Origin: an uncultured Methanosarcinales archaeon
GTDB lineage: Archaea; Nanobdellota; Nanobdellia; Woesearchaeales; JAGWAF01
DNA: 64,000 nucleotides
Direction: 5' to 3'
Assembly: GCA_964597775.1 (NCBI GenBank)
Contig: CAZQZJ010000002.1
Span: 357 to 64,356, forward strand
Part shown: positions 17,222 to 53,276 of the stretch, in pieces
How the letters are laid out: every line of letters begins with the position of its first letter
How positions within the stretch are numbered: position 1 is the stretch's first letter
Notes under the pieces: generated by a model
Database searches by the model: none
What the model was told of the DNA's origin: nothing
The model's input: only the letters and a program-made list of their open reading frames with translations
Made by a program: the position numbers and the translations under genes

Positions 17222-18643
17222 TTAATTTGTTTCAACAAGACCAAGATTATTCTTGTTTTCCTTTTGATTCACTTCTCGCTTCATGCGAATCCGCAGATGT
17301 GCATAATTAGCAGGGTTCTTAATTCTCTTACAAAGAGAATCTGGCATGCAAATGCCTAGATCTTTGTAATATGGCTGGTTGTCACAATTTGGTGGAAGTA
17401 TAGTGCCTTGTGTTTTAAAATGGTGGTTCAGGTGTCCTTTGATAATAACTTCTCTAAGCGGATCTGGGTTTTTCTTATTCCAGTTTTCAATAAGTAGTTC
17501 TATCTGTGCCTGACTCCAACCTGTTGAGCTAAGGAAATTAGTAAGAATAAAGAGTGCTCTTTTTTTACCATCTTGCATGCCTCCTAAGATGTTCATGATG
17601 CATGGTGGAAAATGTTCAAGAGGGATTGCTTCTTGTGGTGTGTCAAAAGCTTTTTTGATTCCGTCAATTCTTTCTTTATCAGGTGGAAGTTTGTAATCAA
17701 ATGCATTGACAAGTAATCGTCTTGCTTCTCCTTGTGCTACTTTAGTACGATCAAGAAATTTTTCTTTTCCAAGATTAATTGATTCTGGTGTTGCCATTGT
17801 CTTATCAAAAGTGATGATTTGAGATGGGTTAATTGGAATTGAAACCAGTCCACTTTTTTCATTAAGCGAGTATGGCATGCGGTAGAGGTGTCTAGAGGAG
17901 ATAAGGACTGTGTCAATAATAAGGACTTTGAATGGATCAAATTCTTTATTTGTCATTAGATCTTCAGGTTTTTTGTTAAGGATTCCACAGATAGTTGATA
18001 GTTGTTGAAATTCAAGAAGTGCTTGTGCAAGTGGTTCACGAATCATTTCACTAAGATATGCAGCAATACGTCTAGGTCCTTGAGGAAACAGGTGTTGTGT
18101 TGGAATGCTATTAATTTCAGATGGAAATGCCTCAAATGGTACAGCAATGTGGAATCCGTGATTTCCTGAGAATTTGATTGTTGTAGAATTAATGCCGTGA
18201 TAAATAAGGACATTATAAAGGATTTGTGCTGCAATTTGTGAATAAGAAAGGATTGGGCAGTCAATGTCTAAGATAAGATCCCAGCCAATGCGAAGGGTGT
18301 CAAGTTCTTGGCGATGCATTTGTGTGGTGAGGTACATAGGGTTTGTCCATAGTTCTTCTGAGCAATGAAATGATGTGGCGCCTTGTTGAACAAGGGTGAT
18401 CACATCGTTTGCAAATTGTAGGGTGTCTGGTCTTTTTCCATAGTTTCCATCTTTGTATCGGATTGCGATTTCCTTTCCATAGGCAAAATCTACAATTATT
18501 TTTTGTATTTCTGGTCTTTTGTAATATTTGAGAATTGTAGAGGTGCTAAGATCCATAAGCCTAGTAGTGTAGATAATCTTCTTAATTCTTGTGATAAGCA
18601 AAGGCGAGCAGTCGGTTTCAAAAGTGGCGTTCTCCTTTGTCAT
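17222..18643 (-). CDS. Fused DNA primase: PriS catalytic domain + PriL C-terminal 4-Cys (Fe-S) domain
   Basis: PriS motifs LILDIDCPI and FSGNHGFHIAV; C-terminal region with 4 spaced Cys (PPCIMN, PNCDN, GICMP, SLCKR) resembling PriL-CTD. Confidence 0.7.
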   Translation of the reverse strand: MTKENATFETDCSPLLITRIKKIIYTTRLMDLSTSTILKYYKRPEIQKIIVDFAYGKEIAIRYKDGNYGKRPDTLQFANDVITLVQQGATSFHCSEELWTNPMYLTTQMHRQELDTLRIGWDLILDIDCPILSYSQIAAQILYNVLIYHGINSTTIKFSGNHGFHIAVPFEAFPSEINSIPTQHLFPQGPRRIAAYLSEMIREPLAQALLEFQQLSTICGILNKKPEDLMTNKEFDPFKVLIIDTVLISSRHLYRMPYSLNEKSGLVSIPINPSQIITFDKTMATPESINLGKEKFLDRTKVAQGEARRLLVNAFDYKLPPDKERIDGIKKAFDTPQEAIPLEHFPPCIMNILGGMQDGKKRALFILTNFLSSTGWSQAQIELLIENWNKKNPDPLREVIIKGHLNHHFKTQGTILPPNCDNQPYYKDLGICMPDSLCKRIKNPANYAHLRIRMKREVNQKENKNNLGLVETN

Positions 18644-18646
18644 CTC

Positions 18647-18850
18647 GTACTTGTTAAGCCAGGTGTTATACAGAGGCGCTGGCGTGGGACGTCAAGATGC
18701 GAGCACTATTATGAAGTTCTACGCAAACCCGAGGAGGTTCCAGATAGGAGGGTTTCTTTGAATAGTTCTGTGAAGTGCGAGCGACGTCCCATTTTTGCGC
18801 AAGCAAAAATAAGCCAGTGCCTCTGCAATAGGTGTGGGCTTAACAAGTAC
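18647..18850 (+). ncRNA. Structured repeat element E, copy 1: 14-bp terminal helix gtacttgttaagcc/ggcttaacaagtac plus internal helices. Candidate ncRNA or MITE-like element
   Basis: Second copy at 35380-35638 with conserved core and compensatory stem change (cagaggcgctggc pairs gccagTgcctctg here and gccagCgcctctg in copy 2). Confidence 0.45.
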
Positions 18851-18867
18851 GTCATCTCCAAACCTTT

Positions 18868-18894: not shown

Positions 18895-21516
18895 ATGGTT
18901 GAGGTGTATCAGTACTCTATTAATGATATTCTTACCATCTTCAAAACCCAAAGAAATGGACTAAATGATAGTGAAGTTCAGGCAAGACTTGTTATATATG
19001 GAAAGAATCTTATTGAGCGTACACACATAATTAATCCATGGGTAATCCTTTTTATGCAATTTGCAAATCCTGTGGTATGGGTGCTTTTTGGAGCAGGTTT
19101 GATTACAGCAGTGCTTAAAGAGTATATTGATAGTATAGTAATTGGGATTGTGATTTTTGTTAACACTATTTTTGGTTTTGTGCAAGAATATCATGCTGAA
19201 AAGTCAATTGAGGCATTGCGTAAAACATTGGGTTTACAGGCTCGCGTGTTTCGTAATGGTAATGTTGTAGTAATTGATGCTACTAATCTGGTGCCTGGTG
19301 ATATTGTTTTGTTAGATACTGGGGATAAGATTCCGGCAGATTGCAGGCTTATTGAATGTGTGAATCTTAAAATTCAGGAAGCGAGTTTGACTGGTGAAAG
19401 TATGCCTGTGAAAAAAACTCTTGAAGCACTCAAGTTTGTTACTGGCGTTGCAAATCAGCAAAATATGGTTTTTGCAAGTACTGTTGTGGTTATGGGTAGG
19501 GGTGTTGGTGTGGTTACTTCAACAGGATTCTCAACCCAGGTTGGTAAGATTGCACATCTTATTGAGGAAGCATTGCCAAATCTAACTCCACTTCAGAAGC
19601 GTCTTAAAGCATTAAGTGTACATGTAACAATTGGTACTATCTTGGTCTGTTTAGTAGTTTTTGTTACTGGTGTGTTTTATAATCAAAATTTGTTCGATGT
19701 TTTTTTGCAATCAGTTTCTCTTGCTGTTGCTGCAATTCCTGAGGGTTTGCCAGCAGTTGTGACAATAACATTAGCATTAGGAGTGCGTATTATGGCTGCA
19801 AATAAGGCTCTTGTTAGAAAACTACCAAGTGTCGAAACCCTTGGTGCATGTACTGTTATTTGTTCTGATAAAACTGGAACTCTTACTCATAATGAAATGA
19901 CTGTGCAGCATCTGTATGTAGATCAGAAGATAATTCATGTAAGCGGAACAGGATACAGATCACAAGGTACACTCTCCTCTCACCCAAAAGAGGTTGATCT
20001 GCTTGTAACCATAGGAGCATTATGCAATAATGCACGATTGGAAAAGAAAGAAAAATTAGGGGTTATTGGAGATCCTACTGAGGCTGCCCTTTTAGTAAGC
20101 AGTGAAAAAGCCGGATTGAATCTAGATATATTGCAAAAACAGTATCCTCGTGTAGATGAAATCTCTTTTTCTAGTGAACGAAAATGTATGACCACAATTC
20201 ATGGCAAAAACGGAAGGTACACATCGTTTATGAAAGGTGCCTCTGAGATTGTGCTTGCGTGTTGCACACATGTTCTTGAGCATGGAACAAAGCAGGTTTT
20301 AAGTGTACAGATGCGTAAGAATATTTTGTCAGTGAATGAGGCTTTTGCCAATCAGGGTTTGCGTGTTCTAGGTTTTGCATACAAAAACATGGCAACAAAG
20401 GCTCATCCTGAAGAAGGGCTTGTATTTGTGGGATTACAAGCTATGATAGATCCTCCAAGGCCAGAGGTAAGAGAAGCAATCAAGATGTGTCATAAAGCAG
20501 GGATTAAGGTTGTTATGATTACAGGTGATCATATAAGCACTGCAGTTGCTATTAGTAAGGAGATTGGAATTTTAGGTAAAGCTGTGAGTGGTGATGAATT
20601 AAGCACATTAAATTTGGATTGTATCATTGATGAAGTTGGGGTATATGCTAGAGTTGATCCAGTGCATAAATTGCGTATTGTTGAGGCACTTAAGAAAAAA
20701 GGGCATGTTGTAGCTATGACTGGTGATGGTGTTAATGATGCGCCGGCGCTTAAATCAGCAGATATTGGTATTGCAATGGGAATGACTGGGACTGATGTTG
20801 CAAAGGAAGCAAGTGTTATGGTTCTTGCTGATGATAATTTTGCCACAATTGTTTCAGCGATAAAACAAGGTCGTAAGATCTATGATAATATTAAGAAGTT
20901 TGTTGTGTATTTGTTAAGTTCAAATATGGGAGAGGTATTAACAGTTTTTGTAGGAGCACTGCTTGGTTTGCCGCTGATCTTGATTGCACGCCAGATCTTG
21001 TGGGTGAATCTCGTGACAGATTTATTGCCAGCACTTGCATTAGGGCAAGAACCAGAAGAGCCTTCACTTATGGAGCGACCACCTCAAAAAGCATCAGATG
21101 AAATACTCTCTTCTAAACAAGGAGTCATCTTAGGTAGTATAGGATTATATATTATGGCAGGTACGCTCCTCGCATTCATGTTAGGTGAACCGTCTACAAA
21201 TCTTCTTAAATCACAGACATTGGCATTTACCACTCTTGTCTTTTTCCAGCTTTTTAATGTATTTTTATTGCGAAGTCAACACCATCATATTTGGGAATTA
21301 AAGATAAATTGGATGTTAATTTTTGGAGTTGGATTAAGTGTGGTACTCCAAATTGCAGTAGTTATGATACCATCATTTTCAGTTATATTTGGTACAACAT
21401 CACTTAATGCATTTGAATGGTTATTTGTTTTAGCATGTTCAAGCAGTTTATTTATTGTAGGAGAATTGTCAAAAGGATTCATTAATCATTGGCAAGCAAG
21501 ATCTCAGGTTCTTTGA
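18895..21516 (+). CDS. P2-type cation-transporting ATPase (SERCA/PMCA-like)
   Basis: DKTGTLT phosphorylation motif, PEGLP in M4, MTGDGVNDAPAL, 873 aa with 10 TM. Confidence 0.9.
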   Translation: MVEVYQYSINDILTIFKTQRNGLNDSEVQARLVIYGKNLIERTHIINPWVILFMQFANPVVWVLFGAGLITAVLKEYIDSIVIGIVIFVNTIFGFVQEYHAEKSIEALRKTLGLQARVFRNGNVVVIDATNLVPGDIVLLDTGDKIPADCRLIECVNLKIQEASLTGESMPVKKTLEALKFVTGVANQQNMVFASTVVVMGRGVGVVTSTGFSTQVGKIAHLIEEALPNLTPLQKRLKALSVHVTIGTILVCLVVFVTGVFYNQNLFDVFLQSVSLAVAAIPEGLPAVVTITLALGVRIMAANKALVRKLPSVETLGACTVICSDKTGTLTHNEMTVQHLYVDQKIIHVSGTGYRSQGTLSSHPKEVDLLVTIGALCNNARLEKKEKLGVIGDPTEAALLVSSEKAGLNLDILQKQYPRVDEISFSSERKCMTTIHGKNGRYTSFMKGASEIVLACCTHVLEHGTKQVLSVQMRKNILSVNEAFANQGLRVLGFAYKNMATKAHPEEGLVFVGLQAMIDPPRPEVREAIKMCHKAGIKVVMITGDHISTAVAISKEIGILGKAVSGDELSTLNLDCIIDEVGVYARVDPVHKLRIVEALKKKGHVVAMTGDGVNDAPALKSADIGIAMGMTGTDVAKEASVMVLADDNFATIVSAIKQGRKIYDNIKKFVVYLLSSNMGEVLTVFVGALLGLPLILIARQILWVNLVTDLLPALALGQEPEEPSLMERPPQKASDEILSSKQGVILGSIGLYIMAGTLLAFMLGEPSTNLLKSQTLAFTTLVFFQLFNVFLLRSQHHHIWELKINWMLIFGVGLSVVLQIAVVMIPSFSVIFGTTSLNAFEWLFVLACSSSLFIVGELSKGFINHWQARSQVL

Positions 21517-24666: not shown

Positions 24667-24865
24667 ATGCTAAGTATCGTGGTTCAGTTTTTAATCATTA
24701 TGCCTATCTGACGTGTGTGGGAAGTGCAGAACATTGTGGTAATTAGTGTAATATGTCATCCTCATTCCTCAAAGCAACATGCAAGAGCAGTTTCAAGAGC
24801 CTTCTTGATCTTTGATTCGCCTATCTTTTCTTTGAGTTCTTCAAGTAGCATATGTAATCACCAGT

Positions 24866-25069
24866 TTAATGACATGGATGATCCTTCTTCTTATCAGATT
24901 TGTGAGTGTCGTGGTGACTCTTTCCCATATGTAACAAGTGCATAAGTGGGCATGCTAATATAATAATCCACCAAATCCAAGAGCTTGTGATACCAAATAT
25001 GGAGATGAACGCTAGCAAAGCAATGGGTATAGCCATGCAGGCAATCATCTTCCAATTGTTTTGGTTCAT
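24866..25069 (-). CDS. Small membrane protein with His-rich C-terminus (HHDTHKSD..HPCH)
   Basis: 1-2 TM then His/Cys-rich tail; ATGA overlap with upstream gene. Confidence 0.3.
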   Translation of the reverse strand: MNQNNWKMIACMAIPIALLAFISIFGITSSWIWWIIILACPLMHLLHMGKSHHDTHKSDKKKDHPCH

Positions 25070-25386
25070 TGTTTAGGGTGGTGGCTCTCATGTTCAGTTT
25101 GAGACATACCATTAGCAGTTCCACTATCAGACAATCCTGAGTTAGGCATCATTCCATTCATCATAGATCCCATATTGTCCATCATAGAAGTCATACCATT
25201 CATCATTTTTTCGCAGTTCTCCATCATTGTAGTCATCATATCTTGAGTAGCTATTGCCTTTTTTTCAGCTGTATCTGCTGTTGATCGTACTTTACCAACT
25301 TCGTCTACTAATGCAATCGCAAAACTTACAGTTGCGACAATGGCCAATGCGATTACCATAATTAATGTTATTTTCTTTTGTTTCAT
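25066..25386 (-). CDS. Membrane-anchored Met-rich protein (MxxM/MM repeats), putative Cu(I)-binding
   Basis: N-terminal TM anchor; MMTTMMENCEKMMNGMTSMMDNMGSMMNGMMP Met-rich region. Confidence 0.5.
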   Translation of the reverse strand: MKQKKITLIMVIALAIVATVSFAIALVDEVGKVRSTADTAEKKAIATQDMMTTMMENCEKMMNGMTSMMDNMGSMMNGMMPNSGLSDSGTANGMSQTEHESHHPKQ

Positions 25387-25778
25387 GTCTTTGCCTCCGC
25401 AGCATGTGCTGCATCTTTGTTTTCTTTAGGTATATCTTGTAAAAGCCAGAACAAGCTGTACAAGTCAAAGCCGGCCTTTTCCAATTCCTGAGCAGTTGCC
25501 AGATCTGTTTCCAGATATTTAGTTGCTGTTTCCATCATTCGCATGCAGGCAGCAAGAAGGTGTTTGCTAATACACCAAACCTCTCCTTCAGAATCAACAA
25601 CAAGTCTCTTCAGTAGTTTGATACGAAGTTTGCGCACTGCAGCAAGAATATGTAGGTATTTTGGATTGTCTGTCTTTACTGATGTCATGGCTAGATGTTC
25701 TTCAATGCTTACAATGTTCATGATTGCAAAACTCAAGTCCTCCTTATTGGTGAGATCAGCTGAATTTGTCAAGTTCAT
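25383..25778 (-). CDS. Hypothetical helical protein
   Basis: ORF in 5-gene overlapping operon; no recognisable motif. Confidence 0.35.
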   Translation of the reverse strand: MNLTNSADLTNKEDLSFAIMNIVSIEEHLAMTSVKTDNPKYLHILAAVRKLRIKLLKRLVVDSEGEVWCISKHLLAACMRMMETATKYLETDLATAQELEKAGFDLYSLFWLLQDIPKENKDAAHAAEAKT

Positions 25779-26272
25779 ACAAATCCCCCAATAATTAGCA
25801 CAGTGCTGGCTAATAATAAAGATCCTATTAAGATGCTAGTGCCCTGTAGACTAATAAAATTCTTGCCATTGTTCTTTGCTCTTAGTAATCCATGTACTCT
25901 GTGTCCTGTGGTTGACACAAATATGCCAATAACCATTCCACTTAACAATCGAGGAAGACCAAAGAGTAGGCTGTTTGTTTCAAACAATCCACTAATCTTA
26001 AATCCAATAATAGTGATTACTGTAGCAAGTAGGATAAATACTATATCCTGGTTGTACACAAAGTTTTTGTCTTGTTTCTTAAGTGTATTGTCAGCCCATA
26101 AAGCTGTGGAGACTATGAATCCGCCTATGAGTACACCTACTAAGGAATCATCTACACCATACCAGCGTGCAACACTAACAGCAGCACCTGCAGCTGCTGT
26201 GCAGACTGGACAGTGAGCCATTACAGATGGCACTATTCCAAGACTTGTACCAATACCAACAGGCCATCGCAT
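25775..26272 (-). CDS. Integral membrane protein with intramembrane CPVC motif (start at MRWPVGIG; longer ORF rejected because it crosses repeat X1)
   Basis: Multi-TM, CPxC motif typical of metal-translocating sites. Confidence 0.45.
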   Translation of the reverse strand: MRWPVGIGTSLGIVPSVMAHCPVCTAAAGAAVSVARWYGVDDSLVGVLIGGFIVSTALWADNTLKKQDKNFVYNQDIVFILLATVITIIGFKISGLFETNSLLFGLPRLLSGMVIGIFVSTTGHRVHGLLRAKNNGKNFISLQGTSILIGSLLLASTVLIIGGFV

Positions 26273-26281
26273 CCATTGATG

Positions 26282-26380
26282 TCTCAAATGGGTTCTATCC
26301 CGATGCTCTGCATCGGATATATTTGCCAATTTGAGATTAAAAAATACTCCTGGGCTCTTCCCAGGTTGGGATTTTTTATT
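26282..26380. repeat. Intergenic module X, copy 1: TATA-like GGATATATTT(minus AAATATATCC) + A6-hairpin(cctgggc/gcccagg)-T6
   Basis: ~90% identical copy at 43521-43621 immediately upstream of tRNA-Leu; partial copy at 31806-31900. Confidence 0.6.
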
Positions 26381-26384
26381 CATC

Positions 26385-26957
26385 TTAGCACGCTCCAGTT
26401 GCACTCTGCGTTCCTTGTGGGTAGAAAATCTTTTTCCACAACTCAAGTTCTTGCTGGATCTGACTTGAGTTGTAGCCCTTTGTAGTCATGAGTTTAGCCA
26501 AACCAAACATTGCTACATGGTGGCCGCATTCGCAATTATCTTTTGCTTGTAGCTGTTTAACTCCGCAACAAGGCAATTCTACATCAAGGCCAACAAATAT
26601 CCTTTCTTGAGCCAAGGTAGGAATAATTTCTTTTGCATCTTTGAGCAGTTGATCATATCCTGCAGTATCCATTGTTATGCCGTATTCAGTCATCTCGCCT
26701 GTGGCTTTAGCATCATCTATCCCTCCACAGCCAGGGCCGTCCATTTCTGATAATTTTGGATGATGTGTTTTCATCATCTCTTCATTAGAACTAAATCCTT
26801 CGGTTGACATGTCCCCAGCATTTCCTTGTTGTGTCTTAAGAACTACTGCGTCACTTGCTTCCTGGCGACCTGCCCATATCACTGTGAAGATTAGGCTTCC
26901 AACCAGGAATAGTAATACAACAATACCGATTATCTTCTTGTTTTCCATGATAACCAC
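26385..26957 (-). CDS. Membrane-anchored Cys-rich protein (GPGCGG, PCCG, CECGHH motifs)
   Basis: N-terminal TM, multiple Cys/His clusters, first gene of putative metal-handling operon. Confidence 0.45.
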   Translation of the reverse strand: MVIMENKKIIGIVVLLFLVGSLIFTVIWAGRQEASDAVVLKTQQGNAGDMSTEGFSSNEEMMKTHHPKLSEMDGPGCGGIDDAKATGEMTEYGITMDTAGYDQLLKDAKEIIPTLAQERIFVGLDVELPCCGVKQLQAKDNCECGHHVAMFGLAKLMTTKGYNSSQIQQELELWKKIFYPQGTQSATGAC

Positions 26958-27053
26958 TTATCCGCAGCAAGCATGTCCTTGTGTTTTGGCATCTTTATTT
27001 TTGCGTTTGTTTCTTTTTTCCATATAATGACCTCCATTGGTTTATACAAATAT

Positions 27054-27172
27054 AATTATATCAAATCACTTTAATTATAGGATATTTTTCCCAGATTAAA
27101 GTGATTTGATTATTAGGAAATAACCTTACTTTCATTTTTGAAATATCCTAAAATTAAGGCTATTTCCTATAG
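27054..27172. repeat. Double-hairpin intergenic repeat, copy 2
   Basis: Matches 1798-1916; stems identical, loop 1 differs. Confidence 0.6.
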
Positions 27173-27324: not shown

Positions 27325-27819
27325 TCATTTGAGTATAACTGCATTTGTCATGCCGCGTCTTCTGCGTTCAATAAGGTTTTTTCCTTCAAGTTTATCCAGG
27401 ATGCGCGTGATCTTAACCTTGGAAAGTGCTGTCTTGGTTACCAAGTCGCTTTGAAATATCATACCTTCAGATTGGCGCAGGATGTCAAATATCAATGCTT
27501 CCTCGCCATCTAAACTTTTGGTAGTAACAGCAGCTTTCTCACGTATCTTCTCTTGCGGCTGTTTCTTAAGATATAGTAAAAGTCCTACAATAAACAAGAA
27601 GGTAATCACTCCCAAGCCGATAAATTTAGGCAATGCCAATCTGTTGAGTTCTTGATATGGGCAAGTTAATCCTTGTTGGTGAACACATTCACCCTCTGGT
27701 CCAGTGTCATGGCCAGCAAGTAAGGCTTTTTCAGCAGAGTTAATATAGTTAAAACCAATAATAAGTAATATAGTAGCGATTGTCATGTTTGCAATTCCAA
27801 AAAAGCGGAGAGTTTCCAT
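27325..27819 (-). CDS. Membrane-anchored winged-helix (MarR/TrmB-like) transcription regulator
   Basis: Two TM segments followed by C-terminal wHTH (LVTKTALSKVKITRILDKLEGKNLIERRRRG). Confidence 0.5.
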   Translation of the reverse strand: METLRFFGIANMTIATILLIIGFNYINSAEKALLAGHDTGPEGECVHQQGLTCPYQELNRLALPKFIGLGVITFLFIVGLLLYLKKQPQEKIREKAAVTTKSLDGEEALIFDILRQSEGMIFQSDLVTKTALSKVKITRILDKLEGKNLIERRRRGMTNAVILK

Positions 27820-27874: not shown

Positions 27875-28180
27875 TTACAAGTATCCTTTTTGATGTGATA
27901 CTAGCATGCTTATATATCCTATAATATAAAAAAATATAGAGAGTTTAAGTCTGTCAAAATCTGTTCCAAGCATGTATCCTAGGAGAAAGGAGAAACTCAT
28001 CAAAATTAGTGGCCATGATGCTGTTTTTTTATGAAGCCACCATAGGTGTGCAAAAAGGCATCCAGCAATAAACACAGTAAATAAAGAAAGCCATAATGCT
28101 TGTGTGTTGATTGCAAGAAGTCCTCCTAGTAGAATAAGGATAAGGGAGAGGAGTTCTGGCCAGGAATGAAAAAGATTCAT
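27875..28180 (-). CDS. Small integral membrane protein (start at MNLFHSWPELL)
   Basis: 3 TM, TAATG overlap with upstream gene. Confidence 0.35.
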   Translation of the reverse strand: MNLFHSWPELLSLILILLGGLLAINTQALWLSLFTVFIAGCLFAHLWWLHKKTASWPLILMSFSFLLGYMLGTDFDRLKLSIFFYIIGYISMLVSHQKGYL

Positions 28181-28917
28181 TACGTAGCCTCCCAGAATGT
28201 GTAAAAAAGCCACCATGCAACGCATCCTGTGATAATTGAGAGAATAATACTGCCTGCAATTTGTATGCCAGAAAGCGACCATAATACATAGCCAAGCAAC
28301 ATTCCAAAGACAAAGATATAGGTAAGTCGTGAATAGAAAAAGTATATAAGTCCATCCAATGTAGGAAGGGGAAGGAAACTCATGATTGCAAATGCAAATG
28401 AGAATCGTGCAAGAGTCCCTAAAATAGGTATGTTTGGCAGGAGTTGAGCAAGGCCATAAGCAAAGCCGCCAAGCAAGAGGCTTGCAATAGGGCCGGCAAT
28501 TGCCACTGCCGCAAGGTCATCACCACTTTCATGATATCTAAAGTGCCCAAGTCTATGTGCTGAAAGGATTTTAATACTAAAATATTCTCCAAAGTAGAGT
28601 TTGATGTTTCCTTTGGAAATAATTGCTATAAGAAGTGAGAAGAATATCCAGTAATAATTAATGCTAATCTCTGGTTTGAGTCGTCGCTTAAGTGCAACAA
28701 TTCTATGTGCTGCATCATGTATAAAAAGCGAGATAGCGATAATGATGCTAGCAGATCCAAAATTAAGAATGCCTTGGCTAAATGAAAATATTTCAGTTCC
28801 CCATTGGTCAAAGGAGAGAATAAATGCAAAGATAAGAATAAGTGTTAATAGGTGATAGCATTCACGTCTGGTAATATAATAGTGTTTGAAAAGATCATTC
28901 CATTCTTTATTTATCAT
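28180..28917 (-). CDS. M50/site-2-protease-like intramembrane metalloprotease with HDxxH variant of HExxH
   Basis: FIHDAAHRIV in a TM helix plus downstream FLPLPTLDGL (M50 LDG motif). Confidence 0.45.
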   Translation of the reverse strand: MINKEWNDLFKHYYITRRECYHLLTLILIFAFILSFDQWGTEIFSFSQGILNFGSASIIIAISLFIHDAAHRIVALKRRLKPEISINYYWIFFSLLIAIISKGNIKLYFGEYFSIKILSAHRLGHFRYHESGDDLAAVAIAGPIASLLLGGFAYGLAQLLPNIPILGTLARFSFAFAIMSFLPLPTLDGLIYFFYSRLTYIFVFGMLLGYVLWSLSGIQIAGSIILSIITGCVAWWLFYTFWEAT

Positions 28918-31786: not shown

Positions 31787-31805
31787 TCTTCGGTGATTGC
31801 TTATG

Positions 31806-31900
31806 TTCTGCATTGGATATATTTACCAATTTCGGGTTTAAAAAATAAGAATTATGCTCCCTAAATGTGAGCAGATCTGTTGCGGTTCTAATTTTTTATT
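31806..31900. repeat. Intergenic module X, degenerate copy 3 (TATA-like part conserved, hairpin diverged), in convergent gap
   Basis: ttctgcattggatatatttaccaattt...tttaaaaaata...aattttttatt aligns to X1/X2. Confidence 0.4.
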
Positions 31901-35379: not shown

Positions 35380-35638
35380 GTACTTGTTAAGTCTGGTGTT
35401 ATGCAGAGGCGCTGGCGTGGAACGCAACAATGTCGCATTTCTACCTTGTGCACAGCGAAAGCCGAAGGACTCGATTGTGCCAAGATGCGAGCACTATTAT
35501 GAATTTCTACGCAAACCTAAGGAGGTTCCAGATACAAGGGTTTCTTTGAATAGTTCTGTGAAGTGCGAGCGGCGTTGTGTGTTTGCGAGTGCAAAAACAA
35601 GCCAGCGCCTCTGCAATCGATGGGGGTCTAACAAGTAC
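35380..35638 (+). ncRNA. Structured repeat element E, copy 2 (with ~50-nt internal insertion relative to copy 1)
   Basis: Terminal helix gtacttgtta.../...taacaagtac, conserved 90-nt core, compensatory stem change vs copy 1. Confidence 0.45.
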
Positions 35639-35640
35639 GT

Positions 35641-43166: not shown

Positions 43167-43430
43167 TCTTTGAATCAACGATAAGTATGTGATAAATATG
43201 TGGTCCTAATATAGTTTAATATTTCAATTACCTTTCCAGGATTTCCTCTTCCAACAGGGAAATAACAAGGAATTACAAGGTATTCCATCCCAAAAATAGG
43301 TTTGCGTTAAAAATATCTTCCAAATCTCTTTTGTTCCAACAAATGGGAATCTTACTCAGTTATATTCTAGAGATGAGGTGGTTAAATCACTCATTAAACC
43401 CTCTAAGTGTAACTTATTCAATAGGTTTAG

Positions 43431-43514
43431 TGCAAGGAGCAGGATTCGAACCTGCGAACGCACTAAGCGAACAGCTCTTGAGGCTGCCCCGTTTGACCAC
43501 TCCGGAATCCTTGC
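43431..43514 (-). tRNA. tRNA-Leu (anticodon CAA), class II with long variable arm
   Basis: Hand-folded: acceptor GCAAGGA/UCCUUGC, anticodon loop CUCAAGA, 15-nt variable arm, T-arm GCAGGUUCGAAUCCUGC; CCA not encoded. Confidence 0.85.
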
Positions 43515-43520
43515 ATGGTT

Positions 43521-43621
43521 TCTCAAATGGGTTCATACCCCATATGCTCTGCATAGGATATATTTACCCATTTGAGATTAAAAAATACCCCTGGGCTCTG
43601 CCCAGGTTGGGATTTTTTATT
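43521..43621. repeat. Intergenic module X, copy 2, immediately upstream of tRNA-Leu; contains the probable tRNA promoter TATA
   Basis: ~90% identity to 26282-26380 including the A6-hairpin-T6 structure. Confidence 0.6.
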
Positions 43622-50412: not shown

Positions 50413-50439
50413 TGATCTAACTCTTACTGTCTTATCCAG

Positions 50440-50800
50440 GGTGCAGACGAAGCCAACGGTAACATCATATTGTTTGGTGTCTCTGAGGAAAGTCTGCCCA
50501 CATCCAGGATCTTTAGTTCAAATCTAAAGATTCTGCAGACAAGCGGTACCTATCCAAACAATAGGATCCAGTAATGGATGGCAACATCACCGAAACGACA
50601 CGGCCATATGCAGATGAGAATGACGCAGTGAAGTCCTTGGTAACAGGGATGAGTTAACCTGTAGAATGATGCATAATGGATGCGATGAAACGGATAGCCC
50701 TATCGTGTGCAAGGCAAACAAGATGCAAGTAGTTCATAAAAACATGTCTGCGTGCTCTTCACATGCCGCTTAGTTGAATGCTTCGGCAGATCATCGGAAG
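50440..50800 (+). ncRNA. rnpB: Candidate RNase P RNA
   Basis: Non-coding 480-bp gap with TATA; CR-I-like GAGGAAAGUCUGCCC at 50485-50499; distal GGCAGAU (50785-50791) can pair with GUCUGCC to form a P4-like helix. Confidence 0.35.
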
Positions 50801-50877
50801 GATGTTATAATCTTTCTTTGGGTCTGACAAAAGGCAGCTTATATGCGCCCTGGATCTTTTTTAAGGTGAGGAAGAGT

Positions 50878-53193: not shown

Positions 53194-53265
53194 GGCGGCT
53201 GTAGTATAATGGTAGTATTCGGGACTGTGGATCCCGAGAACCGGGTTCGATCCCCGGCAGTCGCC
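53194..53265 (+). tRNA. tRNA-His (anticodon GUG) with genome-encoded G-1 pairing C73
   Basis: Hand-folded: G-1 + GCGGCUG/CAGUCGC acceptor, anticodon loop CUGUGGA, T-arm CCGGGUUCGAUCCCCGG, followed by T7. Confidence 0.85.
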
Positions 53266-53276
53266 TTTTTTTAGGG

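Follow-up and report, generated by a model that had tools for sequence, protein, structure and literature searches.

The 64,000-nt stretch of contig CAZQZJ010000002.1 analysed here (an uncultured DPANN archaeon; hereafter the window) carries on its minus strand, between positions 24762 and 27819, a unit of eight genes: a regulator gene (reg), a leader micro-protein, five genes designated g1 to g5, and a tail micro-protein. Judging from genomic context and motifs, we tentatively propose that this operon encodes a cell-envelope system that would handle Cu(I) by means of Cys, Met and His ligands, a reading to which we give somewhat less than an even chance. The g2–g3 pair is a widespread core, found in DPANN archaea as well as in bacteria of the candidate phyla radiation (CPR). 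As a class of function, envelope homeostasis of copper and thiols is not new; the parts are, with g1, g2, g3, g4, the two micro-proteins and the membrane-tethered regulator all lacking a described family.

Conserved gene order and the g2–g3 core

For g1, the contigs of 16 homologues and 25 species-level loci of a genome collection were compared. The order reg–g1–g2–g3 is fixed in ~20 DPANN loci, followed by g5 in 14 and by g4 in a few. Since the order is kept in ~20 independent DPANN loci, and since other loci have the small peptide too, either as such or fused to g1, the gene set goes beyond chance. A conserved regulator upstream, together with conserved leader and tail micro-proteins, flanks g1–g5, and the unit is therefore taken to comprise eight genes. 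The five-gene operon of the preliminary description of this DNA was thus too small, as the regulator gene (27325–27819) and a 29-residue open reading frame (ORF) at 24762–24851 also belong to it. Its five minus-strand ORFs are all present in the ORF listing, and each motif quoted for them was recovered (GPGCGG, LPCCG, CECGHH, AHCPVC, the Met-rich run and the His-rich tail of g5). The chaining of the genes by ATGA overlaps is seen at g2/g3, g3/g4 and g4/g5 but not at g1/g2, where TAA is followed by one base and then by ATG. Of the statement that none of the five belongs to a described family, the part on g1–g4 stands, while g5 is a Pfam DUF2933 protein; in Pfam and NCBIfam scans none of g1–g5 matched an unrelated, well-characterised family, and only DUF2933 and the winged helix of the regulator exceeded the cut-off.

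The g2–g3 pair was examined in 80 metagenome loci anchored on g3, 57 of which had enough upstream sequence for g2 to be counted. In 50 of these 57 loci, g2 lies immediately 5′ of g3. The slot 5′ of g2 is variable, being occupied by g1 in DPANN and elsewhere by TrxM (a membrane-anchored, thioredoxin-like protein), CopG/DUF411, a DsbA-like protein or another transmembrane-anchored Cys protein. TrxM is directly 5′ of g2 in 27 of 43 loci, and its CxxC motif reads CPHC in 24 of 31 cases. The variable Cys-motif partner, the CPxC of g2 and the CC-tailed g3 together point to a conserved design, in which a Cys-motif protein outside is combined with the g2 CPxC and with a CC-tailed g3 in the cytoplasm. 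No description of this module was found in the literature on CPR or DPANN.

At one locus (L045:721–1704), a 327-residue multi-pass membrane protein stands in the place of g2, directly 5′ of g3 and CopA; it has a CCAHH motif in a hydrophobic segment.

Copper genes around g1, g2 and g3 homologues

Within the DNA fetched, a P1B ATPase is encoded in 12 of the 25 species-level g1 loci. One lies at most 8 kb away in 7 of 21 large g3 loci, far more often than the few percent that we estimate as the chance expectation for one such gene in a genome of ~1 Mb. The motifs CPC, YN(x)4P and M(x)2SS, which following the P1B classification we take to be the P1B-1 Cu(I)/Ag(I) signature, are all present in 18 of 23 neighbouring ATPases. 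Similarly, the Cu(I)-type C-H-C ligand signature, in the form C-x(20-30)-H-x3-C, was found in 10 of 12 CsoR-like neighbours (one of the two exceptions is truncated), and the Pfam domain Trns_repr_metal is recorded for the CsoR neighbours in loci L032 and L033. CPR loci encode CsoR, CopA and Trx on one strand, and CcdA/cupredoxin, CopZ, TrxM, g2 and g3 on the other. CopG/DUF411 adjoins g1 in some loci and takes its slot in others (L056 and L112), and g3 and the beginning of CopA overlap in L045. When the Pfam domains of 136 neighbours were counted in another 22 loci, E1-E2 ATPase was present in 10 proteins, HMA in 6 and YHS in 3, together with DsbA-like thioredoxin in 9 and DsbD_TM in 3.

The pump is fused to a g1-like domain in one Patescibacteria CopA-type ATPase (L031:5470–8163), which has a Met/His-rich stretch at its N-terminus and, at its C-terminus, an extra transmembrane helix followed by this Cys domain (PCCGF...NCQCGHH...GGC). 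Because this CopA runs past its last helix into a single extra transmembrane helix, the g1-like domain would be located outside, beside the pump.

These loci resemble the bacterial CsoR–CopZ–CopA and MerR–CopA–cupredoxin–DUF2933 clusters in that g5 belongs to DUF2933, homologues of g2 and g3 sit inside CsoR/CopZ/CopA clusters, and the ATPases next to g1–g3 homologues carry the P1B-1 Cu(I) signature. DUF2933 itself has been noted in proteobacterial MerR–CopA–cupredoxin clusters (PMC8478169). Different from such clusters, the window encodes no CopA, CopZ or CsoR, its regulator is a membrane-anchored winged helix-turn-helix protein, and its g1–g4 and micro-proteins are in no described family.

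The CPxC membrane protein g2 and its partners

The annotated and database start of g2 lies at 26383, which makes its first 37 residues a translation of the repeat inserted between g1 and g2. Orthologues begin ~20 residues ahead of CPxC, so the ATG at 26272 is the likely start, giving a protein of ~166 residues (25775–26272, minus strand). It consists of a signal peptide with an AxA site, CPVC, an Ala/Gly-rich helix and four transmembrane helices, and its two positively charged loops are placed in the cytoplasm by hydropathy and charge. In 145 members of the g2 family, a small-x-Ala sequence precedes [H/V/I/F]-C-P-x-C. Since small-x-Ala is the canonical signal-peptidase site, the mature protein probably begins with xCPxC at the outer face of the membrane, and the g2 of the window probably with H-C-P-V-C. 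No further Cys occurs in the 146 residues past the motif in 90 of the 145 members. A profile search of the family returned 505 cluster representatives, and no match was found in Pfam, NCBIfam or the PDB sequences. The possibility of g2 being a lipoprotein was rejected, as the Cys is at position +2 of the cleavage site and not at +1.

About 13 of the top 150 members of the g2 family are fusions, in which a signal peptide, a thioredoxin- or glutaredoxin-like (Trx/Grx-like) CxxC domain and a transmembrane helix precede g2. In P0172, P0179, P0199 and P0231, the thioredoxin-like domain is joined to g2 via the transmembrane helix and a Lys-rich linker; these proteins may be cleaved in two by signal peptidase, given that the AxA before xCPxC is retained. 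Another fusion, P0224, has an N-terminal Nitro_FeMo-Co (NifX/NifB-like) domain instead of the thioredoxin-like one.

Such fusions bring up the main alternative, which we regard as less likely than copper handling and yet serious, namely that the operon encodes an extracytoplasmic thiol-disulfide system. The outer CPxC of g2 would then exchange disulfides with the Cys-motif partner encoded upstream (g1, TrxM, a DsbA-like protein or CopG), and g2 would act either as a re-oxidiser like DsbB/VKOR or as a reductant/isomerase partner, in organisms mostly without quinones; the link to copper would be indirect, via the damage that copper stress does to envelope thiols. Besides the fusions, it has in its favour the frequent position of TrxM directly 5′ of g2, the predominance in TrxM of CPHC, which is the motif of DsbA, the DsbA-like thioredoxin and DsbD_TM neighbours counted above, and paralogous Aenigmatarchaeota loci in which a weakly CcmH-like plus redoxin protein lies beside CcdA. 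What keeps it serious is that the alternative partners of g2 are all of the thiol-oxidoreductase type in fold or motif. The arrangement is like that of DsbA–DsbB, VKOR–Trx and CcdA–ResA, with a thioredoxin-like CxxC protein beside, or fused to, a small membrane protein whose CxxC is at the outer face.

However, g2 has no sequence similarity to DsbB, VKOR, CcdA or CcmH, and its motif is found where the processed protein begins, not within a loop or the core of a helix. No profile or PDB sequence match connects it with DsbB/VKOR; only the CPxC is conserved, and both a second Cys pair and a recognisable cofactor site are missing. It does not match CcdA/DsbD_TM (PF02683) either, its two Cys being in a single N-terminal CPxC and not on separate helices. 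In addition, those described systems have no counterpart to g3, the conserved cytoplasmic partner of g2.

The anchored Cys protein g1

g1 (26385–26948, minus strand) has 187 residues when read from its ATG, the ORF listing beginning at GTG 26957, and is identical to a hypothetical protein of a metagenome-assembled genome named 'Nanoarchaeota archaeon'. Its 16 homologues are all from DPANN. The protein is composed of an N-terminal transmembrane anchor, a disordered linker with the sequence GFSSxEEMMxxHH, and an outside helical domain in which C74, C127–C128, C139, C141 and H143–H144 are invariant; a C-terminal GxC is nearly invariant.

A Pfam scan of the 16 members with E up to 10 gave no match, the CcmH family (PF03918) and the PCYCGC-motif family (PF13798) included. 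Searching the PDB with the g1 alignment as a profile gave chance-level matches only, and nothing was found when a g1 model was compared with the PDB by Foldseek. With the CcmH sequences 2kw0 and 2hl7, hhalign gave a probability of 0.3%; neither with these nor with the weakly CcmH-like neighbours did the g1 domain share more than a local PCCG...NC motif. In contrast to this CcmH/NrfF periplasmic domain of cytochrome c maturation, g1 lacks the LRCxxC motif and carries LPCCG...NCxCGHH instead, that is, a CC...CxC-HH arrangement, together with a terminal Cys. To our knowledge, the DPANN organisms of the g1 loci are not known for c-type cytochromes. As for CopG/DUF411 (PF04214), it shares the gene slot of g1 in some loci, but g1 has no profile match to it, and the genuine DUF411 proteins are separate neighbouring genes.

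In Aenigmatarchaeota (L014, L015 and L024–L029), g1 is split into two proteins. A small transmembrane-anchored part has only GFSSxEEMMxAHH and a terminal GGC, and the Cys domain is on the other protein. Nearby are a fusion of a weakly CcmH-like domain with an AhpC/TSA redoxin, and CcdA; the terminal GGC is common to the split g1 proteins and their neighbours in these loci.

The partners g3, g4 and g5

g3 (25383–25778, minus strand; 131 residues) is a cytoplasmic four-helix bundle with the invariant residues E26, E27, H28, R49, R52, W68, C69, S71, K72, H73, R80 and E83. Its homologues number 5,130 in the protein collection, none of them with a Pfam domain, and include versions of 170–180 residues named Patescibacteria or Microgenomates. 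No Pfam or NCBIfam model matched in a scan of 57 homologues plus the CPR versions, and a profile search against the PDB remained at chance level. Compared with the copper storage proteins (Csp), the many-Cys bundle core is absent from g3. Neither g3 nor g5 gave a match in a tblastn search against plasmids.

g4 (25066–25386, minus strand; 106 residues) has a transmembrane anchor and a Met-rich outside segment, with a conserved C-E-x-M-M and an end reading GMSQxEHESHH; the Met-rich run pointed out in the preliminary description contains 14 Met in 33 residues. Orthologues were found in L009, L010, L020 and L022, and a g4 profile adds L037 and L038. No Pfam family was above the cut-off. A Met/His-rich composition like that of g4 is typical of periplasmic Cu(I) binders. 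With respect to CopG, CusF, PcoE and CopC, neither g1 nor g4 has a family match, and the likeness is one of composition and position only.

g5 (24866–25069, minus strand; 67 residues) matches Pfam DUF2933 (PF11666) with 31.8 bits (cut-off 21) and an E value of 1.5e-7. The protein has two membrane helices, of which the second contains CPLMH, and its tail, rich in His and Lys, ends in CH. In the hydropathy scan the first helix alone was above the threshold; the other hydrophobic stretch was recognised by reading the sequence. The C-P-x-x-H motif is invariant in 11 g5 orthologues, and the relative in L054 also matches DUF2933. The 14 related loci with g5, all fetched, are reduced to ~10 when duplicate contigs are left out.

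The regulator and the two micro-proteins

The product of reg (27325–27819, minus strand; 164 residues), whose gene is directly upstream of g1 in ~20 loci, has two transmembrane helices around a loop with conserved Cys and His (GECVH...CPY), the first Cys of which is invariant in the alignment. Its C-terminal half is a winged helix of the MarR/DUF7343 type, with Pfam scores of 36.6 bits for DUF7343 (PF24034; cut-off 27.6) and 30.4 bits for MarR (cut-off 24.6). Hydropathy and charge place the loop outside and the winged helix in the cytoplasm. It is thus like the archaeal CopR/CopT regulators (HTH plus TRASH; PMC7830388) in being a winged-helix regulator beside metal-handling genes, and relatives of the leader peptide have weak ribbons of the TRASH/YHS kind. 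Unlike CopR/CopT, it has no TRASH domain and is tethered by two helices with the Cys/His loop outside. Further upstream on the minus strand (27875–28917) are two membrane-protein ORFs of 135 residues (no family) and 245 residues (a weak, sub-threshold M50 peptidase match), whose adjacency to the operon is not kept in other loci.

The leader micro-protein (26958–27023, minus strand; 21 residues) is the small peptide ORF noticed in the preliminary description, which had its coordinates one base off. Its sequence, MEKRNKRKNKDAKTQGHACCG, is Lys-rich, ends in CCG and has no transmembrane helix; it is predicted to be cytoplasmic, and GGAGGT lies 6 nt 5′ of its ATG. At the same position, L001, L003, L007, L010 and L011 have Lys-rich ORFs whose last residues are CCH, CCQ or CCCG, and in L005, L020 and L022 the leader sequence is fused to g1 as its cytoplasmic N-terminus. 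Longer relatives with the same CCH tail have a YHS/TRASH-like zinc ribbon ahead of it, with weak matches below the cut-off (E 0.001–0.2); the 21-residue peptide of the window has no match to TRASH/YHS (PF04945) and no CxxC...C...C ribbon. The tail micro-protein (24762–24851, minus strand; 29 residues), MLLEELKEKIGESKIKKALETALACCFEE, has GGTGAT 5′ of its ATG and ends in CCFEE (…ALETALACCFEE). It is a separate ORF in ~15 DPANN loci, whereas the g3 of L019 has it as a C-terminal fusion; a CC tail is found on 71 of 104 g3 homologues, CPR ones among them.

The two very small Cys-containing ORFs on either side of g1–g5 might also call to mind a locus for the maturation of peptides like those that are ribosomally synthesised and post-translationally modified (RiPP), or a set of unrelated small membrane proteins, whose stretches of Cys, Met and His would have neither a metal nor a redox role. 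We consider this highly improbable. No modification enzyme, protease or exporter is present at the locus, the Cys/His positions do not vary between archaea and bacteria, fusions of the micro-proteins to g1 and g3 exist, and the linkage to copper genes is strong.

An unlikely alternative of another kind is an uptake relay for a different soft metal such as Hg(II), Ag(I), Cd or Zn. From the outside Cys protein, the metal would reach the Cys pair that g2 has in its first helix, and then cytoplasmic Cys pairs, as along MerP, MerT and MerA. The layout is indeed parallel to MerP–MerT, with a Cys-motif protein outside, a small membrane protein with its Cys pair at the outer end of the first helix (the CPxC opening that of g2) and vicinal Cys in the cytoplasmic CC tails; in addition, YHS domains are present in three neighbours, and 5 of the 23 neighbouring P1B ATPases miss the full Cu(I) signature. 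However, there is no homology to MerP or MerT, g2 lacks the cytoplasmic Cys pair of MerT, and among the loci examined no mer genes and no partners of the MerA, MerB, MerR or ArsR type were seen. The context is one of copper, with Cu(I) signatures on most neighbouring ATPases and on CsoR.

A proposed mechanism for Cu(I) handling

If the operon handles Cu(I), the following division of work can be envisaged from its predicted topology and motifs. Outside the membrane, the anchored g1 (CC, CxC-HH, terminal Cys, MMxxHH) and g4 (Met-rich, HH) would serve as binding proteins for Cu(I)/Cu(II), for instance for ions expelled by a CopA-type ATPase, and would exchange copper with the CPxC at the processed outer-face N-terminus of g2. 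Inside, the two basic loops of g2 would be the docking site for g3 with its invariant Cys/His cluster; g3, both CC micro-proteins and the CH-ending tail of the DUF2933 protein would jointly form cytoplasmic thiolate sites beside the membrane. Through its outside Cys/His loop, the regulator would respond to the state of copper or thiols and control the operon accordingly. The net flow might amount to sequestration, to hand-off to or from the ATPase, or to uptake. The scheme starts from conservation, fusions, topology signals and genomic linkage, which are observed, and from these we infer each step of binding or transfer as well as any direction of flow.

The metal role put forward in the preliminary description has gained a link to copper from comparative genomics; at the same time, the window has no P1B ATPase, and disulfide exchange would account for the partners of g2 equally well. 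Several further observations weigh against copper. Genes for CopA, CsoR, CopZ and DUF411 were searched for in the window and none was found, its sole P-type ATPase (18895–21516) being of the P2 type, and within 8 kb copper markers are missing from 13 of the 21 large g3 loci. The L031 protein is the only fusion of CopA with g1 among the longer neighbouring ATPases. g2 is unlikely to be a Cu(I) channel, as its transmembrane helices have no conserved Cys, Met or His, and the six conserved Cys of g1 could be structural disulfides only. The partners of g2 also have folds or motifs of the thiol-oxidoreductase type (CPHC thioredoxin-like and DsbA-like proteins, and a possible CcmH-like fold for g1).

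On the other side, the ligand chemistry fits copper, with the Met-rich g4 and the motifs EEMMxAHH and EEHESHH. Vicinal CC pairs are poor redox couples, which counts against disulfide exchange, and their presence in peptides of the cytoplasm, a compartment in which one would not expect disulfide chemistry, suggests a copper role. Copper handling is favoured over a thiol-disulfide system because the latter leaves unexplained the Met-rich g4, the DUF2933 protein, the cytoplasmic Cys/His protein g3, the CC peptides, and the membership of CopZ, CsoR and CopA in the same operons.

A broader proposal concerns the core pair. It is conceivable, although we would not expect it, that g2 and g3 make up a new envelope machine specific to CPR and DPANN, in which an xCPxC membrane protein and a cytoplasmic CC-tailed Cys/His protein work with interchangeable outside partners (g1, TrxM, CopG or a DsbA-like protein). 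Such a machine could be a quinone-independent, possibly copper-coupled disulfide catalyst, or a Mer-style relay for Cu(I) across the membrane.

Repeats and other features of the window

Both repeats reported at the operon are real. The upstream one, of 119 nt, lies between reg and the leader micro-protein (27054–27172) and is 92% identical to a second copy at 1799–1917; each copy is just 3′ of a minus-strand gene. It contains two hairpins, read from the sequence, whose 14-nt inverted repeats are perfect or nearly so (AGGAAATAnCCTTA / TAAGGTTATTTCCT and ATCAAATCACTTTA / TAAAGTGATTTGAT); a small RNA, a terminator and a miniature inverted-repeat transposable element (MITE) are conceivable identities. 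An Rfam scan of the window gave no match to this repeat, nor any other within the operon or its repeats.

The repeat between g1 and g2, of 78 nt (26303–26380), is 94% identical to 43544–43621, and its 43-nt core occurs again at 31802–31844. When read on the minus strand, it has a GC hairpin (CCTGGG...CCCAGG) with a T-run, followed by a TATA-like box (AAATATATCC). The hairpin and TATA parts are both found in two copies, and the third has the TATA part only; one copy is ~30 nt 5′ of tRNA-Leu. By its sequence features, the repeat may be a portable terminator-plus-promoter cassette, giving g2 and the genes after it a promoter of their own.

Elsewhere in the window, direct repeats of 45 nt (91%) and 160 nt (87%) stand side by side at both 18647–18852 and 35380–35640, one set being just 5′ of the P2-type cation ATPase gene at 18895. 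Archaeal genes surround the operon, among them one for the Hef helicase-nuclease. A 473-residue ORF (17222–18643, minus strand) looks like a fused PriS–PriL, since it has matches to the two subunits of archaeal DNA primase, small and large. The window further contains an archaeal RNase P RNA at 50439–50850 on the plus strand (Rfam RF00373, 96.7 bits), tRNA-His (53194–53266) and tRNA-Leu (43430–43514).

Implications for CPR bacteria and DPANN archaea

Much of microbial diversity belongs to CPR and DPANN, and most of their conserved genes have no assigned function. The g3 family, with more than 5,000 homologues, is now tied to a likely role, to an obligate membrane partner (g2), a swappable outside Cys protein, two micro-proteins and copper-export genes. 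If confirmed, the operon would add new parts to copper homeostasis and maybe offer a view of extracytoplasmic thiol control in quinone-poor monoderm cells, and its membrane-tethered winged-helix regulator would be a rare archaeal one-component sensor that reads the exterior of the cell. The g2–g3 machine, if it exists as proposed, would explain how ultra-small cells without respiratory quinones carry out cysteine and copper chemistry outside their membrane.

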